Assembly (NCBI GenBank): GCA_016713965.1 | Contig: JADJOC010000005.1 | Coordinates: 637 to 64,636, forward strand | Source of the DNA: Chitinophagaceae bacterium | GTDB taxonomy: Bacteria > Bacteroidota > Bacteroidia > Chitinophagales > Chitinophagaceae | DNA length: 64,000 nt | Direction of reading: 5' to 3' | Shown here: positions 2,927 to 52,815 of the stretch, piece after piece | Numbering within the stretch: position 1 is the first letter of the stretch | Layout: each line of letters starts with the position of its first letter | Translations under genes and position numbers: made by a program | The notes under the pieces: model-generated | Seen by the model: the letters and a program-made list of their open reading frames with translations, nothing else | Told to the model about the DNA's origin: nothing | The model's database searches: none

Positions 2927-3166
2927 ATGAAAACAGTACTAATTATTATCGCTCTATTGGTTAGCTTACAATCTATCGCATGTGGGGATCATGGGAAAAA
3001 AGGGAAAAAAAATAAACACTCTAAATTGCCTCCTCTAGAATTAAGATGTACGGAATGTAATAAATGGAGCGTAAAAGATGAAGAATATTGCTGGACGCAT
3101 AGCCCGTATAAATTAGAATTAAAAGAATTGAGAGAGAAAGCAGCAAAATTACGCATCAAAAAATAG
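2927..3166 (+). CDS. putative lipoprotein (79 aa)
   Basis: MKTVLIIIALLVSLQSIAC: signal peptide with a lipobox-like Cys. The ATG at 2927 is preferred over the upstream TTG of the ORF track. Confidence 0.6.
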   Translation: MKTVLIIIALLVSLQSIACGDHGKKGKKNKHSKLPPLELRCTECNKWSVKDEEYCWTHSPYKLELKELREKAAKLRIKK

Positions 3167-3210
3167 AGTAGTTTTGCTCTATTAAGTTCAGAACTTTTGC
3201 ACTACCTTTG
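3163..3210 (+). promoter_or_regulatory. phage promoter family copy P2 (variant hairpin + TACCTTTG)
   Basis: ATAGAG-tagttttg-CTCTAT hairpin, then the 20-nt spacer TAAGTTCAGAACTTTTGCAC, then TACCTTTG (3203-3210). Confidence 0.5.
3184..3196 (+). promoter_or_regulatory. 13-bp palindromic operator-like site AAGTTCaGAACTT inside the promoter spacer
   Basis: Perfect 6-bp half sites. Identical copy at 5372-5384 and near-identical copy at 5100-5112. Confidence 0.45.
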
Positions 3211-3234
3211 ATTTATCAATTTAAAATAACAAAC

Positions 3235-3456
3235 ATGAAAAATAAAATAACTCTTTTGGAAATTGAAGCCAACGCTGCTAATAGCCTATTAACAGAAGAA
3301 GAATATAGTTTAGCCCTTTGGATTTTCTTATTGAATAAAGAAAATAAGAAAAATGTTTTAAGCCTTGCCAAAAACCTAAACATATACCCAAAACCTGCAA
3401 ATGTTCATTATTCAATAATGAAAGAATTAACGATCCACATTAGTAATAACAATTAA
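3235..3456 (+). CDS. hypothetical phage protein (73 aa)
   Basis: ATG after an A/C-rich leader, in the co-oriented early block. Confidence 0.55.
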   Translation: MKNKITLLEIEANAANSLLTEEEYSLALWIFLLNKENKKNVLSLAKNLNIYPKPANVHYSIMKELTIHISNNN

Positions 3457-3482
3457 ACAACAACAATTAAACAACAACAATT

Positions 3483-3632
3483 ATGAAAACAACATTATTA
3501 GCATTTCAAGAATTTAGACAACAATTTTTAGACAAACTTAAAATTGTAAGCCCTAGCCAACCGAATAAATGGTATGAATTTCAAGCCGAATACGCTTATG
3601 AAGTTTATTTGAAAAGAGAAAACAGGATATAA
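3483..3632 (+). CDS. hypothetical small protein (49 aa)
   Basis: Hand-translated MKTTLLAFQEFRQQF...RENRI. It fills the gap between track ORFs and has the same aacaacaa leader style. Confidence 0.45.
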   Translation: MKTTLLAFQEFRQQFLDKLKIVSPSQPNKWYEFQAEYAYEVYLKRENRI

Positions 3633-4570: not shown

Positions 4571-4773
4571 CAAAATATTCTTTTTAGAAACACATAGGAA
4601 TTAAGGTCAAAATATTTTCTTGTTGCCGAAAACTGGTAATTTTTAACAACAATCGAGAAAATAGTAGGAAGCCATCCACGTTAAAAAGCGTAGGTTTCAC
4701 ATTATTCTATCGGTTGTGGGTATACCAGTACCTCGGCATCTGTAGGATTTGTGGCCTGCGCTTTTTAATTTTT
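4571..4773 (+). ncRNA. candidate small non-coding RNA (about 200 nt) between P3 and a terminator-like stem
   Basis: No ATG anywhere in the interval. A 12-bp stem AAAAAGCGTAGG (4683-4694) / CCTGCGCTTTTT (4755-4766) is followed by AATTTTT. Confidence 0.35.
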
Positions 4774-6770: not shown

Positions 6771-6965
6771 ATGGAAACTTTAATAATAAAAGCAATATAT
6801 AAAGGGGATCATTCCATGTTTGAAAAAGGCAAAGAATATTCTATTATAGTAACTAAAATAGAAAAAGGCTGGCAATTGATAACAATTGATAATGATAAAA
6901 AAACACATTACTACCATTCACTTAAAGAATTTATAGGAGAATGGGGGAATATTTCAAACCTTTAA
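6771..6965 (+). CDS. hypothetical phage protein (64 aa)
   Basis: Intact ORF. Confidence 0.5.
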   Translation: METLIIKAIYKGDHSMFEKGKEYSIIVTKIEKGWQLITIDNDKKTHYYHSLKEFIGEWGNISNL

Positions 6966-6971
6966 CGGCTG

Positions 6972-7045
6972 AGGGTTGGCGATAGTGCCGCTAACCGAAA
7001 ACTCAATATTTAGCACCAAACTTGAAGCGGCATTTTGCCAACCCT
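6972..7045 (+). repeat. intercistronic long hairpin E1
   Basis: AGGGTTGGC-gatag-TGCCGCT pairs with AGCGGCA-tttt-GCCAACCCT across a 33-nt loop. Confidence 0.6.
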
Positions 7046-7099
7046 ATATTAGCTTTAGGTTTTAAAAATTTTAGGGAGGGCTTTCATTGAACAATTAAA

Positions 7100-7546
7100 A
7101 TGAGTGTAATAAACAATTTAAAAGGACATATAGTAAAAGACGGAAAAGTAGTTTACTCAGAGCAAATAGAGAACGGTTTACATTTTGCTGTTATATTGAT
7201 GTATGAACCATTTTATGATGGAAAGAATAGTACCAATCATCAAAACTCATCTCAATTAATATGCGAGGCAACAATGACAACTGGCAACAAGCATACTTGG
7301 GGAAACGGAGTAATGAGTTTAGATGAAGCAAGTTGGATTGAGAAAATAGAGGTAACAGAAAAATGGAAGCCATTAAGGGAAGAACTTGAAACCAAAGACG
7401 GATTTAGAGTATGGCAAAAAGATTACCAATACAATGAATACGAAGAAGAAAAAGACGGCAAAAAAGTGAAAATAAAAACGAGAAGGGTTAGTTGGTTAGT
7501 TGAAGTTCCGAAACTTGATTTGCTCCGATATTGTAAAATTGATTAA
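7100..7546 (+). CDS. hypothetical phage protein (148 aa)
   Basis: Intact ORF. Confidence 0.6.
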   Translation: MSVINNLKGHIVKDGKVVYSEQIENGLHFAVILMYEPFYDGKNSTNHQNSSQLICEATMTTGNKHTWGNGVMSLDEASWIEKIEVTEKWKPLREELETKDGFRVWQKDYQYNEYEEEKDGKKVKIKTRRVSWLVEVPKLDLLRYCKID

Positions 7547-7588
7547 TTGTGTGTCGGAAAAATTTTTAAAACTTGAAGCTAACATATT

Positions 7589-7664
7589 GGGGCTTTGCGT
7601 AGTAGCCCTTAGTAGAAACTTAAAATTAACCAGGACACTTGATAGGGCTATTACGCAAAACCCT
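7589..7664 (+). repeat. intercistronic long hairpin E2
   Basis: GGGGCTTTGCGTAGTAGCCCT pairs with AGGGCTATTACGCAAAACCCT: 21 positions with 2 G.T and 1 mismatch. Confidence 0.6.
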
Positions 7665-7690
7665 TGCTATGTGCCGTTATTTCAAACGAT

Positions 7691-7999
7691 ATGGACATAA
7701 TAGAAAAAAAATTATCAGAAAAGTTGAAGAAAACAGGTGAACTCGAAGGTGGTTTATTTGCTGAAATATCATTGCAATATTGTGGTAGGGATTTCGTAGC
7801 AAGAAAAGACTTGTACACAGTAAAAAATGGATTGGTTTACAGTATAAATAAAGACGGTAGCCTATATGCTACTGGTGATTGTTTATATAACGTTCAAAGA
7901 GATTGTCATAGAATTGGGAAGTATAACCATGACGATAACAATCAATTTAAAAGTAGTACATTTAGCTACTCTCAAATAAAGAAGTTGCTCAAACTATAA
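7691..7999 (+). CDS. hypothetical phage protein (102 aa)
   Basis: ATG at 7691 (MDIIEKKLSEK...). The upstream part of the track ORF lies in the E2 repeat. Confidence 0.55.
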   Translation: MDIIEKKLSEKLKKTGELEGGLFAEISLQYCGRDFVARKDLYTVKNGLVYSINKDGSLYATGDCLYNVQRDCHRIGKYNHDDNNQFKSSTFSYSQIKKLLKL

Positions 8000-8003
8000 C
8001 GTG

Positions 8004-8123
8004 ATTGCTTGCTGAAGTGCAGGTATTTGAAAATATCTCGTTTGGTAGCTTAATATTCTAAAGATGAGTAAAGAAAAAAATGTTGATAGCGGTTCCGTCC
8101 AGCCTGCATTGCAGCAAGCAAAT
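8004..8123 (+). repeat. intercistronic long hairpin E3 (loop contains the methyltransferase start codon)
   Basis: ATTGCTTGCTGAAGTGCAGG (8004-8023) pairs with CCTGCATTGCAGCAAGCAAAT (8103-8123): 20 positions with 1 G.T and 1 mismatch. Confidence 0.6.
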
Positions 8124-8768
8124 TGTTGTGTGCCGTTACGGGTACTAAATCTTTATGCTGGCATAGGGGGTAATCGCAAACTTTGGGAGAATGTCCAGGT
8201 AACAGCAATAGAGTACACCGATGAAATTGCAGAGGTTTATAAAAGCAACTTTAAAGATGATACTGTAATAGTTACCGATGCTCACCAGTACCTTTTAGAA
8301 AACTTTGAAAACTTTGATTTTGTTTGGAGTTCGCCGCCTTGCCAATCACATAGCAAAATGATAAGAAGCGGCAGGAATAGAAAACCACGTTACCCGGATT
8401 TGAAACTGTATGAAGAAATACTTTTTTTGAAGCACAACTTTAAAGGCAAGTGGTTGGTTGAAAATGTGATACCATACTATGAGCCTTTAATACCTGGAAA
8501 GAAAATAGGGCGGCATTTATTTTGGGCTAATTATCCATTGACTGAAATAGAAGTGCCGGAATTTAAAAACATGATGAACAGGCAAAATTTAACTGCAAAA
8601 AAGCAGTTGCAGGATTGGCTGGGGATTTATTACGAAAAGAATATTTACTATGAGGGAAACCATTGTGCAACACAGATTTTAAGAAATTGTGTTCACCCGG
8701 TATTAGGTAACCATGTTTTTAAATGTCAAAACAATGTCGTTACGCAGCCTGAATTATTTGGGTGGTAG
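8064..8768 (+). CDS. DNA (cytosine-5) methyltransferase, short form (234 aa)
   Basis: Motif I LNLYAGIGG, motif IV SSPPCQSHS and motif VI LVENV are present. The C-terminal motifs and TRD look reduced. Confidence 0.7.
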   Translation: MSKEKNVDSGSVQPALQQANCCVPLRVLNLYAGIGGNRKLWENVQVTAIEYTDEIAEVYKSNFKDDTVIVTDAHQYLLENFENFDFVWSSPPCQSHSKMIRSGRNRKPRYPDLKLYEEILFLKHNFKGKWLVENVIPYYEPLIPGKKIGRHLFWANYPLTEIEVPEFKNMMNRQNLTAKKQLQDWLGIYYEKNIYYEGNHCATQILRNCVHPVLGNHVFKCQNNVVTQPELFGW

Positions 8769-8787
8769 TAATGGCACACAACGAACA

Positions 8788-8960
8788 GGGCTTGCTTGCA
8801 GTAGCGGCAATAGAATTACGTCTGCTGAGGCAAATGCCCAATAAAGAACCAAAGTTTAAATAATATTTAAAAGCTAAATTTATAACGTCCAGATGGAACA
8901 AAAGAACAACAACGAACCGCAGCCGATTGAAACCACGCCTGCCGCTATTGCAGCAAACCC
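8788..8960 (+). repeat. intercistronic long hairpin E4
   Basis: GGGCTTGCTTGCAGTAGCGGC pairs with GCCGCTATTGCAGCAAACCC. It shares CAACGAACAGGGCTT with E5. Confidence 0.55.
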
Positions 8961-9165
8961 CATGTTGGCAGCAGGTGTGGTCTTGTTTGATGGCAAAAAG
9001 GTTATAATTCAGGAAGCAAATTATATAGAGCATGGTTGGTACATAGAAATAATACACAACGAAATTACTCTATGGGAAATTCCTTATGGCGGTGGTGAAC
9101 CGATAAGAATAAGTGACTTCTTAACTGTTGCTGGTGCTATTCACGCAGCAGGTCGTCTTACGTAA
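8893..9165 (+). CDS. hypothetical phage protein (90 aa; alternative start 8962)
   Basis: Intact ORF. The first 23 codons lie in the E4 loop and right arm, so the ATG at 8962 (MLAAGVV...) is an alternative start. Confidence 0.5.
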   Translation: MEQKNNNEPQPIETTPAAIAANPMLAAGVVLFDGKKVIIQEANYIEHGWYIEIIHNEITLWEIPYGGGEPIRISDFLTVAGAIHAAGRLT

Positions 9166-9185
9166 CACTTGACGGCCAACGAACA

Positions 9186-9359
9186 GGGCTTTGTGCAGGT
9201 GGGGAACTTGAAAAACGTCTGCTGAAACCGCTGTTGGGCTTTGATTAAAAGATAAAAATAAATTCTCTGTTTGGCTTTGTTCGTCAAGCCCACGACTAAA
9301 GCTAAATAGAATTACCAATGCTCATTGTGAGTTGTGTCAGCCCCACTTGCACAAAACCC
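9186..9359 (+). repeat. intercistronic long hairpin E5
   Basis: GGGCTTTGTGCAGGTGGGG pairs with CCCCACTTGCACAAAACCC: 19 positions with 1 G.T and 1 mismatch, and a loop of about 136 nt. Confidence 0.6.
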
Positions 9360-9385
9360 AATGTTGGCTGCATACCTTTCTTTTT

Positions 9386-9697
9386 ATGTCAAACGAGATG
9401 TTAGAAAAATTAAAAAAGTTGCGTCCTTTGTCGCCCACAGTAAATCAAAAGTATGTTGATGTAAGTCTTAAAATATTGGATGCGTCCAAAGTCTTACACC
9501 CAACATATACATTAGAAGAATTACACGACTTTGTATTTTTTAAAGAAGTCCCACAAAGAAAAATTAGTCCCGAAAGATTAAATACTCACTTGTGGGAAAT
9601 CGTTAAAGAGCATTGGTCAGCAACAAAGTCTGATGGTGAACTTGCTGAAATTTTGGTTAGTCCAATCTTTCAACAAAAACTCCAATCTGACAGTTAA
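9386..9697 (+). CDS. hypothetical phage protein (103 aa)
   Basis: ATG at 9386 (MSNEMLEKL...). The upstream track extension lies in the E5 repeat. Confidence 0.55.
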   Translation: MSNEMLEKLKKLRPLSPTVNQKYVDVSLKILDASKVLHPTYTLEELHDFVFFKEVPQRKISPERLNTHLWEIVKEHWSATKSDGELAEILVSPIFQQKLQSDS

Positions 9698-9992
9698 AGT
9701 CTGTTGGGTCGGTAGGTGAAAGAAGATTAATTCCGTAACCACCACTCATATCGTTTAAGTGGTCGTCTAATTTGAAATTAATCTCAACAACTTTACATCT
9801 ATAACCTTCAAGAGTTAGAATGTTTCCAACTTCAATAAATTGAGAATTGTCCCACTTTTGACGTTCAATATTTAATTCGTCTAAAGTTTCTCTGTTGTAG
9901 ATATAGGCAATTTCTCTGCCTTCTCTGTCGCCTTGTGAAGCATACTTAAAAAGTATTCTTGCAAAAAACCTTTCTAGCTTTGGTTGTGTCAT
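9657..9992 (-). CDS. hypothetical protein on the opposite strand (111 aa)
   Basis: Intact ATG ORF convergent with 9386-9697, with a 41-nt 3' overlap. One of only three minus-strand ORFs in the + strand early arm (with 14612-15166 and the tentative 15535-15702). Confidence 0.5.
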   Translation of the reverse strand: MTQPKLERFFARILFKYASQGDREGREIAYIYNRETLDELNIERQKWDNSQFIEVGNILTLEGYRCKVVEINFKLDDHLNDMSGGYGINLLSPTDPTDFNCQIGVFVERLD

Positions 9993-10054
9993 ACTGTAAA
10001 AATTAAATTATAAAATAAAAGCTGTGTCCAAATAAGGTTGCAGCCAACGTCAAA

Positions 10055-10162
10055 GCATTGCCGAAGTTGGGGATTTTGAAAACCAAATGTTCAATTTAGC
10101 AATGAAGTTTAATAGTAGTACAAAAGTTCAATTAACCACGTCTGCCCCAATTTTGGCAATGC
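10055..10162 (+). repeat. intercistronic long hairpin E6
   Basis: GCATTGCCGAAGTTGGGG pairs with CCCCAATTTTGGCAATGC: 18 bp, 16 Watson-Crick plus 2 G.T. Confidence 0.65.
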
Positions 10163-10208
10163 AATGTTAGCAGTAGCCTTTTTGGTCAGTCGTACAAAAC
10201 AAATAAAA

Positions 10209-10613
10209 ATGGATAAAATTCAAAAATTGACAGACTTAATAAAGTCAAACATTAAAGAACTTACTAAAATAGAAGTAGGACAAGTTTTTAACTCAAAATA
10301 CTATGGGCATATAGTAGCAACAAAGGTTACTCATTTATCAGAAGGCAAATATTCAATTTACGGATTTGATATAAAAGAAGGTTTGCCAAGAGATAATTAT
10401 TATCCGAGAGATTTAGATTTAGTTGGTAAAGAACCAATGCTTAATAATGTTTTACATTTTTTTGTTGAAAGTTTGTATTCAACTTCAAAAGAAGATAAGC
10501 ACCTTTCTGTTTTGGATATGATTTTGTCAGAATGGGATTACTCAAAAACGTACCTTAAAGACCAAAGTGAAGCAACTATAAATTATCTTTTCGATTTAGC
10601 AGGGTGTTCGTAA
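10209..10613 (+). CDS. hypothetical phage protein (134 aa)
   Basis: ATG at 10209 (MDKIQKL...). The ORF is bracketed by GTTAGCAGTAGCC (10166-10178) and GGTTACTGCTAAC (10614-10626). Confidence 0.55.
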   Translation: MDKIQKLTDLIKSNIKELTKIEVGQVFNSKYYGHIVATKVTHLSEGKYSIYGFDIKEGLPRDNYYPRDLDLVGKEPMLNNVLHFFVESLYSTSKEDKHLSVLDMILSEWDYSKTYLKDQSEATINYLFDLAGCS

Positions 10614-10631
10614 GGTTACTGCTAACGATTG

Positions 10632-10741
10632 AGTATTGGCGAAGAAGCGGACTTTTACCACTAAAGTTGATACGAAGAACTAATGTTGATGTTACTACAA
10701 ACGTTCATACGAAGCACTAAAACCGCTTTTTTGCCAATACT
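10632..10741 (+). repeat. intercistronic long hairpin E7
   Basis: AGTATTGGCGAAGAAGCGG pairs with CCGCTTTTTTGCCAATACT: 19 bp, 17 Watson-Crick plus 2 G.T. The loop holds the direct repeat GTTSATACGAAGMACTAA twice. Confidence 0.65.
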
Positions 10742-10829
10742 TTGTTATGCGTTCGCCTTATTTTTTCGTGTTGATTTTCAGTAAGTTAGAAAATATTTTG
10801 AAAATAAATCCAAAATACTTTGAAAAAAG

Positions 10830-10860
10830 TTTGCAGTTATCAAAATAGGTTGTATATTTG
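10830..10860 (+). promoter_or_regulatory. canonical Bacteroidota sigma-A type promoter
   Basis: TTTG (10830-10833), N19, TATATTTG (10853-10860), preceded by the direct repeat AAAATAyTTTGAAAA twice. Confidence 0.6.
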
Positions 10861-10901
10861 TATCAGCAATAAAGCAAAAAACAATCTTAAAAATAAATAA
10901 A

Positions 10902-11087
10902 ATGACAACTTCAATTAAACTTCAAATTAAATCAGTTTACGGAAATGAAATGATTTATCCAGCTTGTGAAACTTCTAAAACTCTTGCAAATTTGACAAGA
11001 AAAAAAACGTTAGATGGCAGAGATTTAGAAATGATAAAATCTCTTGGATATACAATTGAATGGGTAAACGCATATCAAATGGCATAA
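10902..11087 (+). CDS. hypothetical protein (61 aa)
   Basis: First gene after the canonical promoter; TAATG overlap with the next gene. Confidence 0.55.
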   Translation: MTTSIKLQIKSVYGNEMIYPACETSKTLANLTRKKTLDGRDLEMIKSLGYTIEWVNAYQMA

Positions 11088-11257
11088 TGGCAAATAAAAA
11101 ATTAAAAACGCAAGGCGGTAAACGTGTTGGCTCTGGTCGTAAAAAAGCAGATTACGAAACTAAAACGATTGCCTTTCGTGTTCGGGTAGAATTTGTCGAA
11201 CCGATTAAAAAGATGGTTAAGGATTATGTTTCGGAGCGTCTTAAAGGTGACGCATAA
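11087..11257 (+). CDS. small basic DNA-binding-like protein (56 aa)
   Basis: MANKKLKTQGGKRVGSGRKKADYETKTIAFRVRVEF...: basic N-terminus followed by a beta-strand-like segment. The RHH-like assignment is tentative. Confidence 0.45.
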   Translation: MANKKLKTQGGKRVGSGRKKADYETKTIAFRVRVEFVEPIKKMVKDYVSERLKGDA

Positions 11258-11309
11258 CGGGTATATGTAAGAAATATTTGTAATTAATTGATAAATAAGA
11301 TATTATAAT

Positions 11310-12146
11310 ATGGAAATTCCTAAGTATATAGAAATGTATAGGAAAGATTTATTGCTTAAAAATTATGCTTTATCAAGTATAGATAATTATGTTTCGCAGG
11401 TTAAATTATTTTTGCATGACCATAATAGATTATTTACTGAACCTGCAAAAGTCAATGAAAAGACAATAAAAGAATGGTTATTAAAAGCTAAATCTATAAA
11501 TAGCAGAAAACATAAGTTATCTGCTTTGAAACTCTTTTACCATTTAACAATTAAGCAGCCAATGAAATTCAAGTATATTGAATACCCTAAAGCTGATAAA
11601 AAACTGCCAATAGTTTTAAGTGTTGAAGAAATACAGAAAATGTTTTCAGTTTGCGAGAACTTAAAGCACAAGGTTATTTTATCACTTCTTTATTCCGCAG
11701 GATTAAGAGTATCTGAACTTATTAATTTAAAGTGGCAGCATATTGATAGAAGCAGACTGGTTATAAATATCATTGCTGCTAAAGGGAATAAAGATAGACA
11801 AGTTATGCTTACACCTTCAATTGTACCATTGCTGGAAAAGTATTGGAATGAATATAAAAGCAAGGAGTATGTTTTAAATGGATGGAAAAATGAATTGCAA
11901 TATTCAGATAGAAGTGTAGGTGAAGTAATAAAACAATTGGCAGATAAAGCAGGAATAAATAAAAGAGTATATACGCATTTAATTAGGCATTGTTCATTTA
12001 CTCATTTAGTTGAAGCAGGATGCGATATAAATTTGGTACAAAGATTAGCTGGACATTCAAGCATAAAAACTACTAACCTATATTTACATACTTCACATAC
12101 TTTAATAAGCAAAATACAATCACCACTATCACAAATTAAAATGTAA
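11310..12146 (+). CDS. int: tyrosine site-specific recombinase / integrase, XerC/D-like (278 aa)
   Basis: Catalytic pattern R (AGLRVSEL), K (AAKGNKDR), HxxR (THLIRHCSF), H (LAGHSSIKTT), Y (NLYLHTS), plus an N-terminal SAM-like core-binding region. Confidence 0.85.
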   Translation: MEIPKYIEMYRKDLLLKNYALSSIDNYVSQVKLFLHDHNRLFTEPAKVNEKTIKEWLLKAKSINSRKHKLSALKLFYHLTIKQPMKFKYIEYPKADKKLPIVLSVEEIQKMFSVCENLKHKVILSLLYSAGLRVSELINLKWQHIDRSRLVINIIAAKGNKDRQVMLTPSIVPLLEKYWNEYKSKEYVLNGWKNELQYSDRSVGEVIKQLADKAGINKRVYTHLIRHCSFTHLVEAGCDINLVQRLAGHSSIKTTNLYLHTSHTLISKIQSPLSQIKM

Positions 12147-12158
12147 AAACATAAATAA

Positions 12159-12320
12159 ATGGTAGAAGAGATAAAACTAAATATTCATTTAACTTTAGAG
12201 ATAGATTCTGGATTAAATATAAAAGACCTTAAAGAATATATTGAAAATAATTTAAAACTAAAACCACACCCATTTATAGATATAATTTCTAAACATATAC
12301 AAATAAAAAATAATAAATAA
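12159..12320 (+). CDS. hypothetical small protein (53 aa)
   Basis: Hand-translated MVEEIKLNIHLTLEID... Confidence 0.4.
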   Translation: MVEEIKLNIHLTLEIDSGLNIKDLKEYIENNLKLKPHPFIDIISKHIQIKNNK

Positions 12321-12338
12321 CCCTTTAATCCCTACTTT

Positions 12339-12512
12339 ATGATTTGCGAAAAATTTAATCAATTAACCCCTTTTGAAAAAGTTATCTACATAGGTAAACT
12401 AGTACATGCTGTAGAAAATGATGATATTCTTTTTGATGCAGGAAATGAAATAATAGAACTTGCTAATAATAAAGGAATTTTTAAAGGAATAACAATTTTC
12501 CCAACAAAATAA
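12339..12512 (+). CDS. hypothetical small protein (57 aa)
   Basis: Hand-translated MICEKFNQLTPFEKVIY... Confidence 0.4.
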   Translation: MICEKFNQLTPFEKVIYIGKLVHAVENDDILFDAGNEIIELANNKGIFKGITIFPTK

Positions 12513-13703: not shown

Positions 13704-13925
13704 ATGCAAATAGAAACAAGATTAGCAGACGAAGATGTAAAAATAAAACTTAGCCTTTGCCAAAAATGCAATGGTATTATTAGAGCTGCTGTTGAACACG
13801 AAATGGATACTAAAAGTAAAAATGAGTTTTTAAAAGAAGTAATGAGATATGATTTGTCAGTAAAAACTATCCCGTTGCTTGAATATAAGGAAGTAAAAAA
13901 TCGTTGGTGCAAATGTATATCATAG
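13704..13925 (+). CDS. hypothetical Cys-cluster protein (73 aa)
   Basis: CQKC...CKC pattern. Confidence 0.5.
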   Translation: MQIETRLADEDVKIKLSLCQKCNGIIRAAVEHEMDTKSKNEFLKEVMRYDLSVKTIPLLEYKEVKNRWCKCIS

Positions 13926-13994
13926 CGTTGAAGCCAACGTGTTGATGGATACTATGCCCCTCTCTTTAGGTATTGGTATTAAAAAATTTTTAAA

Positions 13995-14210: not shown

Positions 14211-14264
14211 GTCGTTTAGCGGTTCGTTGCGGTTAATTAGTATAAACTTTTAAATAACAATAAA

Positions 14265-14573
14265 ATGAAAATAGATACAAAAAAAATAGGAACATTCCTA
14301 AAATCAATTGATGATGCTGAATACATTTATATGCAGCATTGTATGGAAATGCGTAACGGAATAAACAACCTAATCAAAAGGCATAATTTGTCAAAGCAAG
14401 ATGTTTGCGAAAGGTTTAAAATCAAGCCTGCTAAATACAATGATTATGTAAAAGGCAATTACAACTATTCCGTTATGGATATGGCTTGTTTAAATGCTGC
14501 ATTTATGGAATTAGAAGCCGAAAAGCTAAAAGATAATGTTCCTGTTCAGGTCGCTGGTAGCAATGACCGCTAA
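14265..14573 (+). CDS. putative XRE-like HTH protein (102 aa)
   Basis: LSKQDVCERFKIKPAKYNDYVKGN resembles an HTH_XRE helix-turn-helix. The assignment is weak. Confidence 0.4.
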   Translation: MKIDTKKIGTFLKSIDDAEYIYMQHCMEMRNGINNLIKRHNLSKQDVCERFKIKPAKYNDYVKGNYNYSVMDMACLNAAFMELEAEKLKDNVPVQVAGSNDR

Positions 14574-14611
14574 CGGTGTCCTAAAATAGCACACCACTTT
14601 AAGGAAAATGA

Positions 14612-21715: not shown

Positions 21716-21940
21716 ATGCTTATTTTAGAATATACTTGTAGAATATTATTTATGTTAGCAGCACTTTCTATCGCACTAACTTTTATTGTATTAATACTTC
21801 AAAAAATATTTATCAAAAAAAATAAAAAACTTGATAAAATTAATGATAAAATAGCATATATGGGAGGTATTTGTATTGGATTATTAATATTAAATGGAAT
21901 ATTAGTTGTTGTATATATGGTTATCAGTAAATCTATTTAG
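21716..21940 (+). CDS. two-pass membrane protein, moron-like (74 aa)
   Basis: Two hydrophobic helices. It is the only + strand gene inside the minus-strand tail module and has its own P5 promoter. Confidence 0.5.
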   Translation: MLILEYTCRILFMLAALSIALTFIVLILQKIFIKKNKKLDKINDKIAYMGGICIGLLILNGILVVVYMVISKSI

Positions 21941-24900
21941 ACTTCTCTGGCCTATATCCAAGATATTCAATGAACCCTCCTTTAAATATCCCGTTCCACA
22001 CACCTTGTGATGGGCTAAAATCTCCACTATAAGGGTCTTTCCCAGTTATTCCTTGATATAATACTTTCCCATCTTTTACTAATCGCCAAGGAAGCGGTAA
22101 ATTAAACTTAGAACCTACCACTTCTCCTAATGACCCCCACATTTTACCTTTATCTCCTTTTTCAGCATAATCTATAGCTTTTATAGCTTTTGTAGTAGCA
22201 TCAAAAGAATCATTTTTATTTAAAATATTTTTAAAATAATACCCTAATTCTTCATTTTCAGCAGCCATTTGTGTAAGTAAAAATTCTGGTGTAAATGTAT
22301 CTAAATAACGCTTAGACCATTTATTTTTGTTTCTCCACTCTCTATAATCATCTGTACTTGCTACCCCCATAAAGGCAAGGTATGTTAATAATGAAGCCCC
22401 CCCACCTATTGCGCCACGCATATATTTATCTTTATAACGGGCTTGATTATACAATGCTCTTTCTAAATATTTCATACCTGATTCACTAGCTAAATCAATC
22501 CTAGACCTTTTGCCACCAGATGCCAATTGATAACCTAATCCTGTAAATAGCCCTAATCCTGTTTTTTCTAATTTAAGTACTAGCCAGTTCGTCCCACCAC
22601 CAACAAATGGATTAATCATATTTCTCCATATAGAGGATTTATAAGTTAAATAAGCACCTCTATTCCAATCTTTTTCTTTAACTGCTTCTTGTATTTTCTT
22701 TTCTATAGAGCCTGTATATCCAGTTACCATTGCTGATAATGGATTATTAGCTTCATGCCCCAAGCCTTCACCTGCTGCTTTATATGCTGCTTTATATGCT
22801 GCTTCAATTTGTTCAGTAGTTAATTTTTCTCCCATCTCTAGTGCAGATTTAACTATATCATTTGCAAACCTGTCAATAGATGTTTGTGTAGTGGGGACTA
22901 ATTCCTCTTTAGCATCTTTATTTATTTTTTCTATAACCTCTTTTGCTGTTACCTGTGCATCCTTAAAAGTTTGACCTGTTAATTTTTCTGAAACAAATTT
23001 AACAGCTTCATCCTTTGACATTCTATTTTTATTAGTTTCGTGTGTGAGTATTTTAATAAGATTATGAGCAAATTTCTTCTCTGTAATAGATTGCTTAAAC
23101 ATTGCATCCATCGCATCTAATGTTGCCTTCCCTGTTAATACAGAAGCTATACCTTGATATAATTGATTGTCGGATAATTTATTTACATAATCATCTAATT
23201 TAGCCCGATTTGTAAATTGGTGATTAACATCCCCATAACCAACCCCACCATTTACTAACATATCTTTATATATTGTCTTCATCATAGCATTTCTATGTTT
23301 AGCCATTTGCTTAGTACCAATACCTTCTTTACTTAATTCGCCTCCTATTTTTTCAAAGGCATTCTGTATTGCACCAGAAAAAGGATTTTCTACAGTTTGC
23401 TTTAAATTATTAAGTACCATTGTTTGGCTTATATCCATATAACTCCTAACTATATTTGCCATTTTAAAATTATTGTTCCCTTGCATTTTTGCCTCTTTAG
23501 ATAATAATAACCTTAAATTGTTTTCTAATTGCTGCATAGCAGCCTTAGAACTAACATCATTTAATTTCACTCCTTTAAAACTACTAGAATATAAAGTTTG
23601 CATTGCATTGGCTATTTTTTTAGCTTGCTCAAACCCCTGTGGGCTTATACTTGACCCTATGGCTGTATTAATAAGTTTATCATACTCTGCCGTATCTTTA
23701 TCAAATAATCCATAGTTGTATAATTCAGCTAATTTTTTAGCTGCTCCTTTTTGTTCAGGTGATACACTTTCTTTATTTCTTTTAGCCAATTCGTTCATTG
23801 ATTTTTCAATAATTGAAGCACGCAGAGTATTGTATTCTTCAATTAATTCTCCCTGCATTTTTTGCACTTCCTCTTTACTCATACCTTTATCTAGTAAAGC
23901 CTTTTCTACATTAGATTTTATTTTATCAATACTTCCTTCTTCGCCAGCCAATTTCTTCCAATCTAATATTTTTCTTTTCTCCCCTTTTATAGTAGTAGTC
24001 CTATTAAAACCAGCATCAATTAAAGCCTCTTTTACTGTTTGTTGTATAGACTTATCATTTTCTTTTACATTGACTTTGTTTTCTTCAAACCCTTTTAAAT
24101 AATCTTTTCTAAATTCATCTTCTTTTTCCCAGTTTTTACCATACTTCTCTTTTATTTTTTTAATACCTAATTCTATTGCATCAGCAACTTTAACACCTGC
24201 TTTAATGGCATTTTTTATTGTTGTTATACCTGCATCAATTATAGCCACAGGAACACCTAACCCAGCATCATACAATTTGCTCCTTAATTTCTTTTGTATA
24301 GATTCTAAAGCTGCAATTGCCTTGTCTGCTTTTTTTCTTCTTTCAGTAGGTAATTCTTTATAAATTTTATCAATCTCTTTTGCAACACCCTCCTCAACCA
24401 TTTTTTCTATTTGAGCATTTTTATCTAAATTAACCTGCTCATTTTCTACCTCTTTAACTTCCGATTCTTTATTAATAATATCCGCATCAGCTTCTAATGC
24501 TTTTTCAATATCTGATTTTTTTTCTAATTCTTTACTTGAAAAAAAGCTATCAGTTATTTTTGAAGTATCATAACCAACTTCTGCTATTTTCCTTAACCTA
24601 GCCATATTTAAGGCTAATGAATTTTCCCTAGAAAATGCCTGCGATTTTTCATAAACCAATTTCTGTAATTTATTTATACGTTCAACATTTGGGCTTTCTA
24701 ATTTTTCTTTTGCTAAAGCATTTTCCAAACTTATATAAATAAGTGCTTTATTTGGGATAGGTAAATTTTCTTTCCCTACATATTCTAATAATTTTTCTAC
24801 ATATTCATCACCAAAAACCTCTTTTGATTTTTCAATTACTTTTTCACCATGCAATAACGCTGGCAATAATTCTTGTTTGATTATTTCCTGATTATTTTGT

Positions 24901-27900
24901 GGAGTTTCATTGGTATATTTTTCAATCGTATCTTTACTCATATACTCCCTTATCACGCCTTGATTGGGAATATTTGCAGCCATTTTATCCAATCCTTTTT
25001 TATCTCCACCACCTTCACCATCACTCATAGGTTTATCACCGCCCTTTGGCGGTTCTACTGGCGGCTTTTGCCCTCCTTCTTTTGCTGGCGGCTCAACTTC
25101 ACCAGCTTTTGCATTAACAGCACCTTCGCTCTCTGCTTGGATAGTATTTTTGGGAACTTCTGCTTTGGCTTCATTTTTTATCTCTGGTTTAGTAGATAGG
25201 TATTGTTCTTTGGGATTATTTAGTTCCGCTAAGTTTTCTGTATGATGAAAAATGTCGTCTAAAATAGTTGGGTCTTTTAATCCTAACATTTTTGCAACTG
25301 CATCTAAGAATTGCTTAAATACATTTGGTTTTTTGCCTTCGCTTTTAAACTTTGAAAGTATGTCTTGAAATTCAGGATTAGCCATTGCCTCTGCAACAAA
25401 TTCATCCAAATTTTTAAATACGTTATAATTGGTGTCAATTCCATTCTTTTCAAATATGCCTTTAACCTTGTGGTAAATTCTGTTTAGATTATTTAATGCT
25501 TCTAAATCGGTATCTGTTAAGTGATGTAACTGGTCTTTATCAAAGAATGTAATCTTCATTGAAGTTAATTGGTGAATAGCTTCATGTAAAAATGTCTTTA
25601 CCCTATCAGGGGCTTCTTTACTAAGCGTAATGCCATTTAATTTACTACTCTTACCAAATGCCTGTTTACCTTTTTCGTTTACCAACTTATCTACAAAATT
25701 TGTTTTAACCCCTTTTAGTTTATCCCTTATAAGTTTTGCTAATTCAGCAAATGCACCGCCTCTGTTTTCTGCTTCATTAAGTAAATTCTCTGTATGTTGT
25801 TCTGGAGTTGGTTCGGCTTTACTATTGGCTAACTCATGGTCTTTTTTAAGTGCTTCAAATTTATCAATAGCTTTTTGCGAATATGCTTTGGTATTAGCAT
25901 CCTTACCTTTCATATTTTCTTGGTGATGCTCAATAAGTTTATTCAAAGCAACAATCGGATCTGTCAAAGCCAACTTATGCAATTCAGGATTAGTTTCAGC
26001 CAACCCACTAACAAAACTATCAACCCGTCCTTTTGCATCCTTCTGCTCCTGTGTCAATTCCACATTTTCCCCTACACCACTACCTTCTCCCCTACCATTT
26101 ACTTCTATTGGTGGTGGCACATTATCACCTTCTGGTATTCCTGTGGCTTGGTCAATACCTTCAATCTTTTCTGATTGGCTGGTATCTTCTTCTTTTGGTT
26201 TGTTTTCTATAATATCATTAATAGCTTCCAGTTCTGCCTTGGATTCCTTAACCTCTTTTTCATTTGGTTCAATAGTTTTACCTTCAGCATCTTTTTTAGG
26301 CTCTAGCGATTTTTCCAACGAATTTTTTCTTGATTCTAATTGTTTATCGGTTTTAGGTTCAAGTATGTAATCATTTTTAAAATCAGCTACTAAGGCTGTA
26401 TGTTCTGCTTTTTCTTTTTGACGTGGTGGGAGTTGTTTTTTTAGCGCTTCGTTTTTAACCGCTTCGTTATATAAATAATCACCTTTTTCTTTTTCAGACA
26501 AAGGTTGCCCTTTTGAATTTGTTGTAGGTAAATTTTTATAAGCGGCTGCGGAACTTTCAATGCTGTTTTTTACTTGCTCAAAATCAGTTGTAGATAAATT
26601 GCCATCCTTTACCATTTGTCTAGCCTGCTCAATAAATTCAGTAGGATTTTTACCTGTTTCTAAAAATGAACTTTTCTGTAATTCAGTTGGCGATTTATAA
26701 CCAATATGCCCTAATCCTGCGCCTAAAATACCAAAATTCAAAACTCCTATTAATGATTGTTTGAAATTTTGCTCCCTGTCAATTGGTGTGCCTAATACTT
26801 GGTTTTTTAACTCATTACCAGCCGCCATAAAACCCTCAAATTTTGCACCTGCTTTTGCACCTTCTGCAAACATTTTAGGAGTAGCTTTTACCCTTTCTGC
26901 AATTCCACGCAATGCCTTTGGAGTTTTAGACATCATTGCTGATATTTCACTATCAGTCATTTTGTTGATTATCTTTCCTGCGGATGTTTCCATGCCAGCC
27001 ATTTTCTTTATTGCCTCTGCTGTTCCTGCGCCTGCCATTGCAAAAGAACTTATAGCAGTTGAAGCCATAGCATATTTGTAGGCTTCGGATTGTGGCTTGC
27101 CATCCATTATTGCGGCGGCATATTCATCATGGAAACTTGTTGCGGCAGCAGCAGTAAATGTTGATATAAATTTTCTTGCTGCCCCTGCGCTTGCGCCGCC
27201 ACCTGTTACTGATTCCAAAGCAATAAAAGGCACTAAAGTTGCTGCAATATCAGTAACTCCATATAATATTGAAGATGGGGAAACATCAAATTTTCCTCCC
27301 TTTATAGGAACTCTGCCAAATTTGTCTAAATTGTTTTTTAATAGGCTTGTTACCTGCTTTTCTTTTTGCTCATCACTTAATGATTTATTATTTTTTACAA
27401 TATCTATTTGTGATTGCAATTCAGGCTGTATCAATAACTGGCTATCATTAATACTTTTATTTTTATCTGTTTTATGAAAGGTATATTGCTCTTTTAAATT
27501 TTCTCCCATGATAGCCAACTCACGCATATTATTACTTGCATCAGACATAAAAGGACTGCTAACAGCTTCCCAAACGCCTTCTGCTGTATGGGCTACAGAA
27601 GTAAATAACTTCCCTGCTAAATACCCACCAAAATTAGCACGTTGCCCTAAAACTTCTTGGAGGGCATCATCTACCTTATTATCTACTCTATCAGGATATT
27701 TGCTATCTAATTCATTATTATAAGTTGTTAATTCATTATATTTTTTTTCTAATTGTTCAGCTTTTGATAATTGTTCAGGGGATAAGCCACCACCATTATT
27801 TTTTGCCTCTTTGTTTAAACTATTTAAATCTTCATTGATGGCATTTAGTTGAAGATTAACTCCCGTTTCTTCTAAAGTTTGCATCAAATGATTGTATCCT

Positions 27901-50696: not shown

Positions 50697-51236
50697 TTAA
50701 ACATCTTTGAGTAAACAATCAGATTCCCTCATCAGCAAATATTTTTCTTCATTAATTTCTATATATGTTCCAACACCTTGCCCAAACTTTACCCTATCTC
50801 CTTTTTTAATTTCCATTGATTCATTAAATTTTCCTTTGCCAGCAGAAATAACTAATCCCATTTGTATTTTTTCTTTTATCCCATCAGGAATTATTAAACC
50901 ACCTTTTGATTTGGTTTTAGCATCATCTAATTTTACCAAAATCCTATCTTCTAATAAGATTACTTCATCCCCATCTAAAATAATTAAAACATCAGTCTCC
51001 TTTAAAATAAAATATTTTTTACCATTTTCTTCAAACTCAATTACATTACTATAATATATAGTGTTCCCAATTTTTACAGTCATTTTTCGTCCAGTAATAC
51101 CACCACCAACTGCTATTACTTTACCACTAATATATTTTTTTTTTACTGAATCACGAATTATTATACCCCCCTTAGTTTCACTTGATACCTCAAAAGGCTC
51201 TACTATTATTCTATCTTGTAATGGCCTAATTCTCAT
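50697..51236 (-). CDS. groES: tandem-fused double co-chaperonin (two GroES/Cpn10 domains, 179 aa)
   Basis: Domain 1 is MRIRPLQDRIIVEP...TKGGIII...GKVIAVGGG...ETDVLIIL. Domain 2 is LEDRILVKLDD...SKGGLIIP...GLVISAGKG...KKGDRVKF...ESDCLLKDV. Confidence 0.8.
   Translation of the reverse strand: MRIRPLQDRIIVEPFEVSSETKGGIIIRDSVKKKYISGKVIAVGGGITGRKMTVKIGNTIYYSNVIEFEENGKKYFILKETDVLIILDGDEVILLEDRILVKLDDAKTKSKGGLIIPDGIKEKIQMGLVISAGKGKFNESMEIKKGDRVKFGQGVGTYIEINEEKYLLMRESDCLLKDV
51181..51236. repeat. direct repeat copy A (5' end of the fused groES)
   Basis: 44 of the first 45 nt are identical to 52850-52894. Confidence 0.8.
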
Positions 51237-52815
51237 TTGTTTTTATTTTTTCTAGTGAAATAATAGATTCTGTTGTTAAAAAAATTGCAGCAATAGATGA
51301 TGAGTTTTCCAAAGCTGTTCTTACTACTTTTGTTGGATCAACAATACCAGATTTAAAAAAATTCTCTATTTCATTTGTTTTTACATTATACCCAATTCCA
51401 TAATCACTTTTCATAATTTCATTTATATAAATATTAGGTTCTACATCTGCATTATATAAAATTTGTTTAAATGGAGATTCTAGTGATTTTTTAAGAATAG
51501 AAACTCCAATGCTTTCGTCTTCATTTTCACAAATAATATCAATATCTTTTAAAGCATGTAAGTATGTAACTCCACCACCAGCTACAAACCCTTCTTCTAC
51601 TGCTGCTTTGGTAGCACATAAAGCATCATCTATTCTATCCTTTTTTTCCTTAATCTCTGTTTCCGTAAACCCTCCTATACTTAACACAGCCACGCCATTT
51701 TTTAATTTAGCTAATCTTGATTTAAGGTTTTCTTTTTCATAATTAGATTCAGCTTCTTCCATTTGATTTTTTATTTGATTACACCTGCTTTCAATATCTT
51801 CCTTAATACCATGCCCGCCAACTATTGTACAACTATCTTTAGTTATTGTTATTTTATCTGCACTACCCAACATATCAATAGTAGTATTGTCCAACCTAAA
51901 CCCTTTTTCTTCTGAAATGCAAGTAGCATTTATTAATGTTGCAATATCATCCATAACAAAAAATCTATTACCCCCAAATTCAGGTAATTTTATTGCACAA
52001 ACAGATAATAATCCCCTCAATTTATTCACTACCATTGTTGCCAATGCTTCACCATCAAGGTCTTCCGAAATAATTAATAACGGACGGCCAGTTTGAGAAA
52101 CTTTTTCTAAAATATGTAAAATATCTTTAATGGCAGAAATCTTTTTATCATAAATTAGAATGTAAGGATTATTTAATTCTGCCTGCATTTTTTCACTGTT
52201 AGTTACAAAGTAGGGAGATAAATATCCCCTTTCTATTCTCATTCCTTCAACCAAATTTACAGTAGTTTCATGTCCTTGTGATTCTTCAACAGTAATCAAA
52301 CCATCCCTACCAACTTTTTCCATAGCTTCTGCAATCAATTCCCCAATAAAAGAATCATTATTTGCAGAAATGGAAGCTATTTGTTTTAATAAATCATTAT
52401 TATCAATAGGTTTAGAGATTTTATTAATGTTTTTTACTACTTCTTTAGTAGCCTTTTCGATACCTCTTTTTAAATCCATTGCATTTGCGCCTAATTCAAT
52501 AGCCTTAATTCCTGCATTTATAATGGCTTGTGCCAAAACAGTTGCCGTAGTTGTGCCATCACCCGAAACATCAACAGTCTTAGATGCTACTTCTTTGATT
52601 AAAGATGCTCCCATATTTTCAACAGGATCAGACAATTTAATTGATTTTGCCACAGTTACCCCATCTTTGGTTATATGAGGATACCCAAATTCTCTTTCAA
52701 TAATAACATTCTTCCCTTTTGCTCCTAATGTACTTTTTACAGCATCAGCAAGAATATTGATACCTTTTACTATTTTTTTTCTTCCATCTGACCCTGATGT
52801 TACGATTGTATTCAT
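51226..52815 (-). CDS. groEL: chaperonin GroEL/Cpn60 (529 aa)
   Basis: GDGTTTATVLA nucleotide-binding motif, AAVEEGFVAGGGV, and co-linearity with bacterial Cpn60 over the full length. It lacks the GGM C-terminal tail. Confidence 0.9.
   Translation of the reverse strand: MNTIVTSGSDGRKKIVKGINILADAVKSTLGAKGKNVIIEREFGYPHITKDGVTVAKSIKLSDPVENMGASLIKEVASKTVDVSGDGTTTATVLAQAIINAGIKAIELGANAMDLKRGIEKATKEVVKNINKISKPIDNNDLLKQIASISANNDSFIGELIAEAMEKVGRDGLITVEESQGHETTVNLVEGMRIERGYLSPYFVTNSEKMQAELNNPYILIYDKKISAIKDILHILEKVSQTGRPLLIISEDLDGEALATMVVNKLRGLLSVCAIKLPEFGGNRFFVMDDIATLINATCISEEKGFRLDNTTIDMLGSADKITITKDSCTIVGGHGIKEDIESRCNQIKNQMEEAESNYEKENLKSRLAKLKNGVAVLSIGGFTETEIKEKKDRIDDALCATKAAVEEGFVAGGGVTYLHALKDIDIICENEDESIGVSILKKSLESPFKQILYNADVEPNIYINEIMKSDYGIGYNVKTNEIENFFKSGIVDPTKVVRTALENSSSIAAIFLTTESIISLEKIKTNEN

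Follow-up and report, generated by a model that had tools for sequence, protein, structure and literature searches.

Integrons are the textbook gene-capture device of bacteria, in which cassettes are cut at G|TT. In the CTX phage, XerCD, which has no I2 helix, acts on a folded single-stranded dif-like hairpin, making one strand exchange that replication then resolves. Here we describe an array of seven head-to-tail gene units, each headed by a hairpin, which spans 6967-11258 of a 64 kb stretch of DNA (contig JADJOC010000005.1, from a Chitinophagaceae bacterium assembly) and ends near a tyrosine recombinase gene. This stretch is called the window, and base counts, model scans and coordinates refer to the whole of it. 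It is a phage genome, encoding a terminase, a portal protein, structural proteins and a GroEL-like chaperonin. On balance we favour reading the region as an integron-like array of mobile gene cassettes carried by a phage, and it appears to let Bacteroidota phages swap DNA methyltransferases and small early genes.

In published work (PMC4792948 and PMC7790495), the I2 helix is tied to the shift from double-stranded to single-stranded DNA recombination. Integrase-less attC clusters (CALINs) have been described in virulent phages, including Polaribacter phage P12002L with its methyltransferase cassettes, and IntI1 recombined one predicted attC of that phage at G|TT (Qi et al. 2023, PMC9892861). 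The pdif modules of Acinetobacter (PMC6449649, PMC13141974) form strings with inverted Xer-type arms in many combinations, using contiguous 28-bp double-stranded sites with the same two arms throughout. In T4-type phages (PMC2839356, PMC4122927), hyperplastic early regions are built of small open reading frames (ORFs) beside PeSLs, an early promoter plus a terminator-like stem-loop, which recombine through shared sequence; close relatives differ by whole ORF units.

Results

Architecture of the array

The hairpin elements of the array (E1-E7, 6953-10761) lie between the genes of a co-directional early region. Each unit begins with a G and a spacer of 3-5 nt, followed by a GC-rich hairpin (stem of 16-24 bp, A-rich loop of 35-136 nt), 1-3 nt, and a TGTTR box with a left arm; there then follow a leader, at least one ORF, a second (right) arm, complementary to the first, and a YAAC box. 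Neighbouring units join at AAC|G, and the last abuts a conserved site which lacks a hairpin, near the recombinase gene (Table 1). The G+C content is 36-44% over ~8000-10750, compared to 23-30% in most of the sequence around it. Taken by themselves, the short boxes do not exceed chance (GCYAACG occurs 8 times in the window vs 3.8 expected, and ATGTTRGC 6 times vs 5.25 expected); the ensemble of boxes, hairpins and ORF-bracketing repeats is real and lies far above it.

The middle of the array (8777-10750) was the subject of an earlier note, which had described a layout of box, spacer, stem, loop, stem, spacer and box resembling attC. The boxes it listed are present at their coordinates (CACAAC 8777-8782 with GTTGGC 8964-8969, GCCAAC 9175-9180 with GTTGGC 9363-9368, GCCAAC 10043-10048 with GTTAGC 10166-10171, and GCTAAC 10621-10626 with GTTATGC 10744-10750), as are three potential ATGTTRGC starts (8962, 9361 and 10164), the inverted cores that bracket ORF 10209-10613 and the pair TTAGCGGT / ACCGCTAA around ORF 14265-14573. 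The layout is the conserved architecture of a large family, as seen by alignment, covariation and model, and the bracketing of ORFs by inverted cores holds in most window units, with the 3' flank of one hairpin pairing with the 5' flank of the next.

A family of boxed hairpins with a strand bias

Recombinase homologues were gathered from viral contigs, metagenomes and genome bins, mostly of Chitinophagales and other Bacteroidota, and similar hairpin elements were found upstream of them. A first hairpin detector was noisy in AT-rich DNA and was replaced by a later one. We aligned 43 related elements of the common 110-nt class, including E6 and E7, and used this alignment as the basis of a covariance model. 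In the window the model found exactly seven elements, E1-E7, all on the + strand; the five from outside the training set (E1-E5) scored E = 3e-9 to 3e-6, and E6 scored 124 bits on the + strand vs 17 bits on the - strand.

The AAC and TGTT boxes are invariant (43/43 aligned elements), TAAC-G and T-GTTA are nearly so, and compensatory changes occur in all 16 of the 16 consensus stem pairs. The elements have an asymmetric internal loop of 4-6 nt by 1-3 nt. Other box positions follow the consensus ATTGCnnnTAAC / GTTAnnnGCAGTA, unlike the RYYYAAC ... GTTRRRY of attC, and no clear extrahelical bases were found, only fixed G:T and C:A positions. When counted with a strand-symmetric detector, stem mismatches on the gene (+) strand were G:T in 111 cases vs A:C in 35 (p = 2e-10). 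This excess, together with the strand-specific model scores, indicates that the structure is selected in one strand, with + polarity.

Loop length clusters at ~70 nt. The A-rich loops (e.g. 10073-10144 and 10651-10722) are made up of 2-4 imperfect repeats of ~20 nt, of the type TTGAAAAAC / TTAGCAC / TTAACCAC with AAAnGTTSAA, which could be protein-binding repeats or sub-hairpins. No relevant match was found in Rfam 15, whether at the gathering score or at E ≤ 5, and a tRNA/tmRNA scan gave the same result. Miniature transposons inserted in a palindromic target were rejected, as the hairpins' own flanks do not pair, and N4-type template-strand promoter hairpins were rejected because of the folding bias on the sense strand. 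A further hairpin lies upstream of the array at 4680-4769 and has 5 G:T pairs; it has no AAC/GTT boxes and was not detected by the family covariance model.

Complementary arms across cassettes

We compared the 24 nt after each stem with the 24 nt before the next stem for 61 neighbouring pairs from ~37 loci. The 3' flank of an element formed a duplex with the 5' flank of the next element at a mean of -14.7 kcal/mol, with 51% of pairs at or below -15, compared to -8.3 with the element's own 5' flank, -8.9 with that of the next element but one and -7.7 with random flanks from other loci (p = 2e-10 vs random, 7e-7 vs own). The arm helices are typically 15-18 bp long, running from a GTTA start to a TAAC end, and their sequence differs from cassette to cassette. 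Complementarity is still strong over gaps of up to 2.1 kb and does not weaken with distance. Arm position 11 is a fixed G opposite T: among 22 arm helices this position was G:T in 21 and A:C in none. This pairing is a generalised form of the integron rule, by which a cassette opens with bases that can pair with the inverse core of its own attC. A contiguous Xer/dif site of ~28 bp (two 11-bp arms with a 6-8 bp centre) was considered and rejected, with pairing of an element's own flanks being equal to random and conservation at the terminal site being limited to YAAC + TACTATATGTA.

Units are portable with exact ends

A 19-mer from the E2 hairpin had 98 exact matches in IMG/VR viral contigs, in ~90 different contexts. 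The constant part extends from TAACGTATC across the hairpin as far as TTGTTATGTGCCGTT, and the sequence upstream is unrelated up to TAAC. For the left arm of this type, GTTATGTGCC, the matching right arm ATGGCACATAAC was found 133-2259 nt downstream in 66 of 68 independent contexts, compared to 9 of 68 in the upstream control. Arm positions 12-16 covary between the two ends (GTTTT/AAAAT, GTAAT/ATTAT, GTAAG/CTTAT and GTATT/AATAT). The E2 element is 93-96% identical in two other loci (L141 and L135).

Portability was also seen at the level of whole units. A 420-nt unit is shared by four contigs at 97-100% identity, beginning at TAACG and ending at CATAACG; the sequence upstream is unrelated, four different hairpins lie downstream, and two more groups behave alike. 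From these exact shared ends it follows that the unit consists of spacer, hairpin, left arm, ORF and right arm. Homologous recombination cannot explain the right-hand boundary, because there is no shared sequence beyond it.

The E2-type hairpin (7589-7664; loci L293-L390), loop included, is almost invariant across ~90 viral contigs that vary widely in size (up to 250 kb), and in one sludge run its depth was 1495, vs ~230 for the recombinase region. Conservation of this loop is unusually strong for the loop of a recombination site.

Arrays are replaced between close relatives

One locus (L132) matches the window at 96-97% identity on either side of the array and carries 1.1 kb of other sequence in place of 6958-11255. 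At the end of this replacement stand a single hairpin, a single ORF and CAAATTGCAGCTAAC, the matching right arm, and homology returns at the last TAAC. The earlier note had suggested a cassette-shuffling platform, to be given up if relatives kept a strictly collinear gene order. The idea is borne out: this phage has a different array, and units recur with exact ends in unrelated contexts, so relatives are not collinear. The variable region of L132 also contains (3150-3533) a longer, paralogue-like copy of the small ORF which follows the recombinase gene in the window (12159-12320; MVEEIKLNIHLTLEIDSGLN... vs MIEELKVNICLTLDVDSGLN...).

Sludge runs were compared as assembled contigs. Relatives there share 50-59% of the sampled 31-letter words of the backbone, which we estimate to represent ~98% identity. 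Divergence of the contigs sets in at window positions 11250/11255, 10046, 9178/9186 and 7580/7591, each of them at an AAC box, and metagenome contigs also break at 9366-9375, on the 3' side of E5. One dominant sludge strain does not have unit 7, a region which is abundant in sludge metagenomes, and one relative retains E6 with its arm and leader as far as ATG 10211, followed by an ORF that differs from that of the window. The depth of hairpins in sludge metagenomes was 20-100x that of the ORFs between them.

In runs X3 and X1 some contigs carry tandem E5-like elements (9370 to 9170, back 201) and others join GTTGGC straight to GCCAAC (8969 to 9175) between two hairpins, which suggests units without an ORF. 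Other contigs have both arms of units 1 and 6 and no ORF (7084 to 7549, 10198 to 10608 and 10209 to 10611), with matched sides of only 20-35 nt.

An all-against-all search among recombinase loci found few shared cassettes, and these were divergent. A 14-mer scan of viral contigs gave mostly chance matches, with ~5 real ones. Searching the region against cultured phages by blastn found only methyltransferase similarity and one promoter-like match in Flavobacterium phage FL-1; by this and a protein search the window has no close relative among cultured phages. The unit 7 cassette was dropped as a marker of the oldest position, as tblastn with its small basic protein found only itself.

Recombinase and terminal site

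The recombinase has a SAM-like core-binding domain and a catalytic domain, without an arm-binding domain. Its closest solved structure is the Vibrio integron integrase IntI4 (2a3v, 9e-30), with XerA-type and XerD proteins close behind, and it weakly matches tyrosine-type invertases. The earlier note had called it a XerC/D-type enzyme: ORF 11310-12146 does encode a 278 amino acid (aa) protein of the two-domain architecture, but it scores under the XerC and XerD cut-offs (146/335 and 157/330 bits), as it does for XerA (185/220) and for TIGR02249, the integron integrase (159 bits, in two stretches, vs a cut-off of 265). The note had also proposed a search for the insertion specific to IntI. When aligned to IntI4 by phmmer, query residues 11-177 matched 10-179 and 204-275 matched 248-319, with IntI4 residues 180-247 skipped. 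The insertion (I2 helix) is therefore absent, query 178-203 (26 aa) standing opposite 68 aa. No close homologue was found among cultured phages by protein search, the best being 32% identical.

The motif YAAC + TACTATATGTA is conserved ~55 nt before the recombinase start in the window and in eleven homologous loci (L001-L011). Around recombinase homologues of ≥ 60% identity, boxed hairpins on the same strand occurred at 0.27/kb upstream vs 0.02/kb downstream, and around homologues of 50-60% identity at 0.17/kb vs 0.00/kb; no such enrichment was seen around recombinase homologues of 25-40% identity. In a 141-kb contig the recombinase gene belongs to the replication module, its neighbours being a helicase-like gene on one side and a DNA polymerase gene on the other, and on this ground the reading of the region as a prophage end with attP was rejected.

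Two kilobases downstream of the recombinase gene, ORF 14265-14573 is bracketed by GTTTAGCGGTTCGTTGC / GCAATGACCGCTAAC (region 14215-14600), the same arm type as in a cassette of locus L168 (GTTAGCGGTTCGTTG / ACAATGACCGCTAAC). No hairpin precedes this ORF; after its AAC box there is only a 5-bp mini-hairpin, whose loop carries the motif AAATAGCAC. The ORF and its bracket look like a unit that stands alone, or has decayed, away from the array. At 13925-13950, in GCGTTGAAGCCAACGTGTTGATGG, two boxes touch (AACG-TGTT) with no hairpin between them, perhaps as a junction that lacks a hairpin or as an empty site.

Cassette contents and feature coordinates

We surveyed 148 larger ORFs beside E2-type cassettes with Pfam. 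Approximately 43 were DNA methyltransferases (26 N6_N4, 6 C5, 6 MT-A70 and others) and 3 were tyrosine recombinases; no HUH or serine recombinase was present among the 25 listed of the 49 matched families. Methyltransferase start codons fall in the 3' box. In unit 3 of the window, the long ORF matches Pfam DNA_methylase from residue 26 onwards, and the window's cassette ORFs other than this methyltransferase had no family match. Unit 5 contains the only antisense gene of the array, a 111-aa ORF (9657-9992) which overlaps the 3' end of ORF 9392-9697 and has no family match.

The only clear promoter, of canonical Bacteroidetes type (10830-10862; TTTG ... TAtaTTTG), is located within unit 7, so at least one cassette carries its own promoter; over the 127 nt around it, identity to Flavobacterium phage FL-1 is 73%. 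No Bacteroidetes -33/-7 consensus was seen in the loops and no T-run after the stems by eye, no promoter or terminator scan having been made. Elsewhere the phage encodes a GroEL-type chaperonin and a 2330-aa protein.

Table 1 Features of the array and of other parts of the window.
Feature	Position	Strand	Details
E1 hairpin element	6953-7065	+	stem 6973-6992 / 7026-7044; covariance model E = 1.3e-6, outside training set
E1 boxes	6961-6966 / 7048-7053		5' TTTAAC, holding the stop codon of ORF 6771-6965; 3' ATTAGC
Unit 1 body	7045-7586	+	ORF 7100-7546, 148 aa; no Pfam or PHROG match
Unit 1 arms	7045-7072 / 7559-7586		28-nt inverted repeat, 25/28 (89%) complementary; right arm ends GCTAAC
E2 hairpin element	7570-7681	+	stem 7589-7609 / 7644-7664; model E = 5.5e-7, outside training set
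E2 3' box			degenerate GCTATGTGCC, then GTTAT 7676-7680
Unit 2 ORF	7692-8000	+	~102 aa from ATG 7692; stop within TATAAC box 7995-8000
Unit 2 arms			weak bracket, ~6 bp: CGTTAT / ATAACG only
E3 hairpin element	7987-8140	+	stem 8005-8024 / 8102-8121; model E = 2.8e-6, outside training set
E3 3' box and left arm	8125-8134		GTTGTGTGCC; contains likely GTG start (8130) of methyltransferase
Unit 3	8130-8782	+	C5 DNA methyltransferase to 8768; PF00145, 3.7e-11
Unit 3 arms	8125-8134 / 8773-8782		right GGCACACAAC; 10/10; 13/14 over 8125-8138 / 8769-8782
E4 hairpin element	8769-8981	+	stem 8788-8809 / 8940-8961; model E = 3.3e-9, outside training set
E4 boxes	8777-8782 / 8962-8969		5' CACAAC; 3' ATGTTGGC
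Unit 4	8962-9180	+	small ORF from 8962 or 8893 to 9165
Unit 4 boxes	8964-8969 / 9175-9180		right GCCAAC; box only, 6/6; 12/17 if extended
E5 hairpin element	9167-9378	+	stem 9186-9204 / 9341-9359; model E = 6.6e-7, outside training set
E5 left arm	9363-9372		GTTGGCTGCA
Unit 5	9392-10048		ORF 9392-9697 (+); convergent overlapping ORF 9657-9992 (-)
Unit 5 arms	9363-9372 / 10039-10048		right TGCAGCCAAC; 10/10
E6 hairpin element	10035-10183	+	stem 10055-10072 / 10145-10162; in training set
Unit 6	10209-10626	+	ORF 10209-10613, 134 aa; no family match
Unit 6 arms	10166-10178 / 10614-10626		left GTTAGCAGTAGCC, right GGTTACTGCTAAC; 12/13, the single mismatch being G:T
E7 hairpin element	10613-10761	+	stem 10627-10650 / 10723-10746; model E = 5e-19, in training set
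Unit 7	10753-11258	+	promoter ~10830-10862; ORF 10902-11087; small basic ORF 11087-11257
Unit 7 arms	10744-10752 / 11250-11258		left GTTATGCGT, right ACGCATAAC; 9/9; stop codon inside box
Terminal hairpin-less site	11259-11271	+	GGGTATATGTAAG; after last AAC box, array end
Tyrosine recombinase	11310-12146	+	278 aa; PF00589, 1e-33; PF13495 + PF00589
Chaperonin, GroEL-type	51226-52815	-	PHROG 5725, 8e-167
2330-aa protein	21933-28925	-	no informative match

Discussion

Comparison with known systems

The locus shares with integrons a cassette array next to a tyrosine recombinase gene, which ends at a simple site beside that gene. Its sites resemble those of integrons in being imperfect hairpins, where YAAC/GTTR boxes and an unpaired spacer enclose an inner stem with a variable loop. 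As in integrons, a cassette opens with sequence complementary to its own distal box, the signature of a G|TT crossover, and folding is favoured on one strand, this being the equivalent of the integron bottom strand if the locus is oriented by the recombinase gene. One site type is common to many unrelated ORFs, as in chromosomal integrons. The locus differs from integrons in that the recombinase lacks the I2 helix and falls under the integron-integrase cut-offs, and in that the ORFs are on the folded strand, each preceded by its hairpin, with transcription of the array running in the direction of the recombinase gene. It also differs in its outer helix, of 10-28 bp compared to 7 bp in integrons, in its long loops with conserved repeats, and in its hosts, which are Bacteroidota phages. 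The integron geometry proposed in the earlier note therefore needs qualifying: it holds on the opposite strand, but in the coding sense the hairpin sits 5' of its ORF. Viewed in reverse, the recombinase gene is followed by a simple site ending ...TACATATAGTA|GTTA and then by cassettes that read GTTA ... TAAC, spacer, hairpin, spacer, CG. This reversed order is the integron plan, and the best-folding strand corresponds to the integron bottom strand.

Strings of modules with inverted Xer-type arms in many combinations are also a property of pdif modules, and the arms found here (e.g. GGCACATAAC / GTTATGTGCC) resemble the CATAA/TTATG inner arms of dif. In contrast to the contiguous pdif sites, the arms at a junction here lie on either side of a hairpin of 80-190 nt, vary by cassette and are not complementary to each other, and the recombinase is phage-encoded rather than host XerC/D. 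The CTX phage differs in that here many small cassettes lie within a double-stranded DNA phage. With PeSLs the locus has in common a hyperplastic early region, small ORFs beside stem-loops and whole-unit differences between relatives, whereas the invariant AAC/TGTT boxes, the cassette-specific arms and the exact ends without flanking homology are features of the array described here. IS200/IS605-type elements were rejected as a comparison: there is one hairpin per unit, and no HUH protein among the listed Pfam families.

Like the CALINs, these arrays occur in phage early regions and have DNA methyltransferase genes separated by attC-like hairpins. In addition, the array described here is physically coupled to a clade of Xer/IntI-like recombinases, and a cognate phage recombinase, a terminal site and extended arms are not reported in PMC9892861. 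The cultured virulent sister phage P12002S has similar boxed hairpins and cassette-spanning brackets beside its methyltransferase genes. In the literature searched, phages were found to carry only borrowed integron fragments or orphan attC clusters; there was no report of such arrays coupled to a dedicated Xer/IntI-like recombinase clade and terminal site, nor of extended cassette-specific arms, reversed ORF polarity or a cassette pool of such scale.

Proposed mechanism

The integron-like plan, with arms able to close the hairpin, leads us to propose that strand exchange takes place within TAACG (CGTTA on the other strand). In a circularised unit the right arm, AAC, G, hairpin, T, GTT and left arm would be contiguous, and the + strand, if single-stranded, would fold as one long imperfect hairpin. 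Within this structure the outer helix formed by the two arms would be comparable to the R box of attC, the asymmetric internal loop to its unpaired central spacer, and the inner stem and loop to its L box and variable terminal structure. A simple tyrosine recombinase of the Xer/IntI type would cut and rejoin at TAACG; the candidate enzyme in the window phage is the 278-aa product of 11310-12146, and elsewhere it may be supplied in trans by a co-infecting phage or the host. Units would be excised between two boxes, and the resulting circles inserted at the terminal site or at other boxes.

A more ambitious version of this proposal, which we offer tentatively and with slightly more doubt than belief, is that the locus represents a second kind of integron native to Bacteroidota phages, with a Xer-like recombinase lacking I2 (or host Xer in trans), folded single-stranded sites and a cassette pool, made up mainly of anti-restriction methyltransferases and small early genes, traded during co-infection. 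If so, either the integron principle would have been invented here a second time, independently, or the locus would be a living relative of the transition from Xer to IntI.

Weighing the explanations

A number of observations weigh against an integron-like array. Several concern the enzyme: it has no IntI insertion, a homologue of it was found in only 6 of 98 E2-type loci, and in those loci with at least 5 kb of downstream sequence it lay downstream on the same strand in only 3 of 41. The dominant activated-sludge strain of run X26 (depth 232) has a clean 1029-bp deletion (11463-12491) that takes the greater part of the recombinase gene along with the small ORFs that come after it, so the recombinase is dispensable for abundance. 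P12002S has no annotated tyrosine recombinase, and its elements were not detected by the family covariance model at E ≤ 1. Others have the look of RNA: the folded + strand is the mRNA sense strand, one stem pair is G:U in 37 of 43 elements, as is typical of functional RNA, and the loops hold conserved short repeats. These form the case for the main rival explanation, in which the hairpins and ORF-spanning helices act in the early polycistronic mRNA rather than in DNA and the recombinase is an unrelated integrase or resolvase. An endonuclease could process the transcript at UAAC|G and U|GUUA, releasing stable hairpin RNAs and mRNAs with paired ends, or the structures could control starts in the 3' box. 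The G:T excess in the stems (111 vs 35 A:C), the invariable G opposite T at arm position 11, the retained loop length (~70 nt), the methyltransferase starts inside the 3' box and the presence of elements in phages without a recombinase all fit this explanation. It does not account for identical units ending exactly at TAACG in unrelated contexts, nor for the replacement of an array up to its last box in phages that are 96-97% identical. A 15-bp helix across up to 2.1 kb of translated mRNA is unlikely, yet the complementarity is independent of distance, and no Rfam family was matched. We consider an RNA-level role in place of recombination unlikely overall; it should be noted that DNA and RNA functions may coexist.

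Shuffling could also proceed without a dedicated recombinase, as with PeSLs, if the hairpins served as portable homology or as replication-stall sites and co-infecting phages exchanged units at the hairpin bases, whether through homologous recombination, microhomology or template switching. In T4-type phages, ORFs with a promoter and stem-loop motif on their flanks are indeed shuffled (PMC2839356, PMC4122927), hairpin types here are 93-100% identical across phages whose recombinases are only ~65% identical, hairpin depth in sludge is 20-100x that of the recombinase, and most cassettes have no recombinase nearby. This explanation appears improbable to us in view of the right boundary, which is exact at CATAAC|G with unrelated sequence beyond, so that only 5-14 nt of identity would be available; it also leaves unexplained the selected complementarity and covariation of the arms, the invariant AAC/TGTT boxes and the conserved terminal site by the recombinase gene. 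We give very little credence to invertible segments of the shufflon or inverton type, in which the repeats flanking an ORF would be double-stranded sites and the recombinase would flip ORFs on and off. Inverted repeats of 10-28 bp with a GTTR/YAAC core do flank each ORF, unit 5 does contain two convergent ORFs, and the recombinase does weakly match tyrosine-type invertases. Inversion, however, would turn the G:T at arm position 11 into A:C, and it is disfavoured because this position has a fixed polarity (21 G:T and no A:C in 22 helices), an asymmetry also retained in the 66 E2-type cassettes. The arms vary between cassettes, so one protein could not recognise them past the core, and no strand-changing joints were reported on metagenome contigs.

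Significance

If the region is an integron-like cassette array, then a self-contained, phage-encoded version of this system, comprising a recombinase clade of its own, an attI-like site and portable units by the hundred that carry methyltransferases and small genes, would explain the fast change of hyperplastic early regions. Since each unit is delimited by TAACG, it would provide a ready catalogue of candidate counter-defence genes, and since the enzyme lacks the I2 helix, it would be a test case for the move of tyrosine recombinases to folded DNA. The abundance of these elements in activated sludge and wastewater viromes makes them ecologically relevant.

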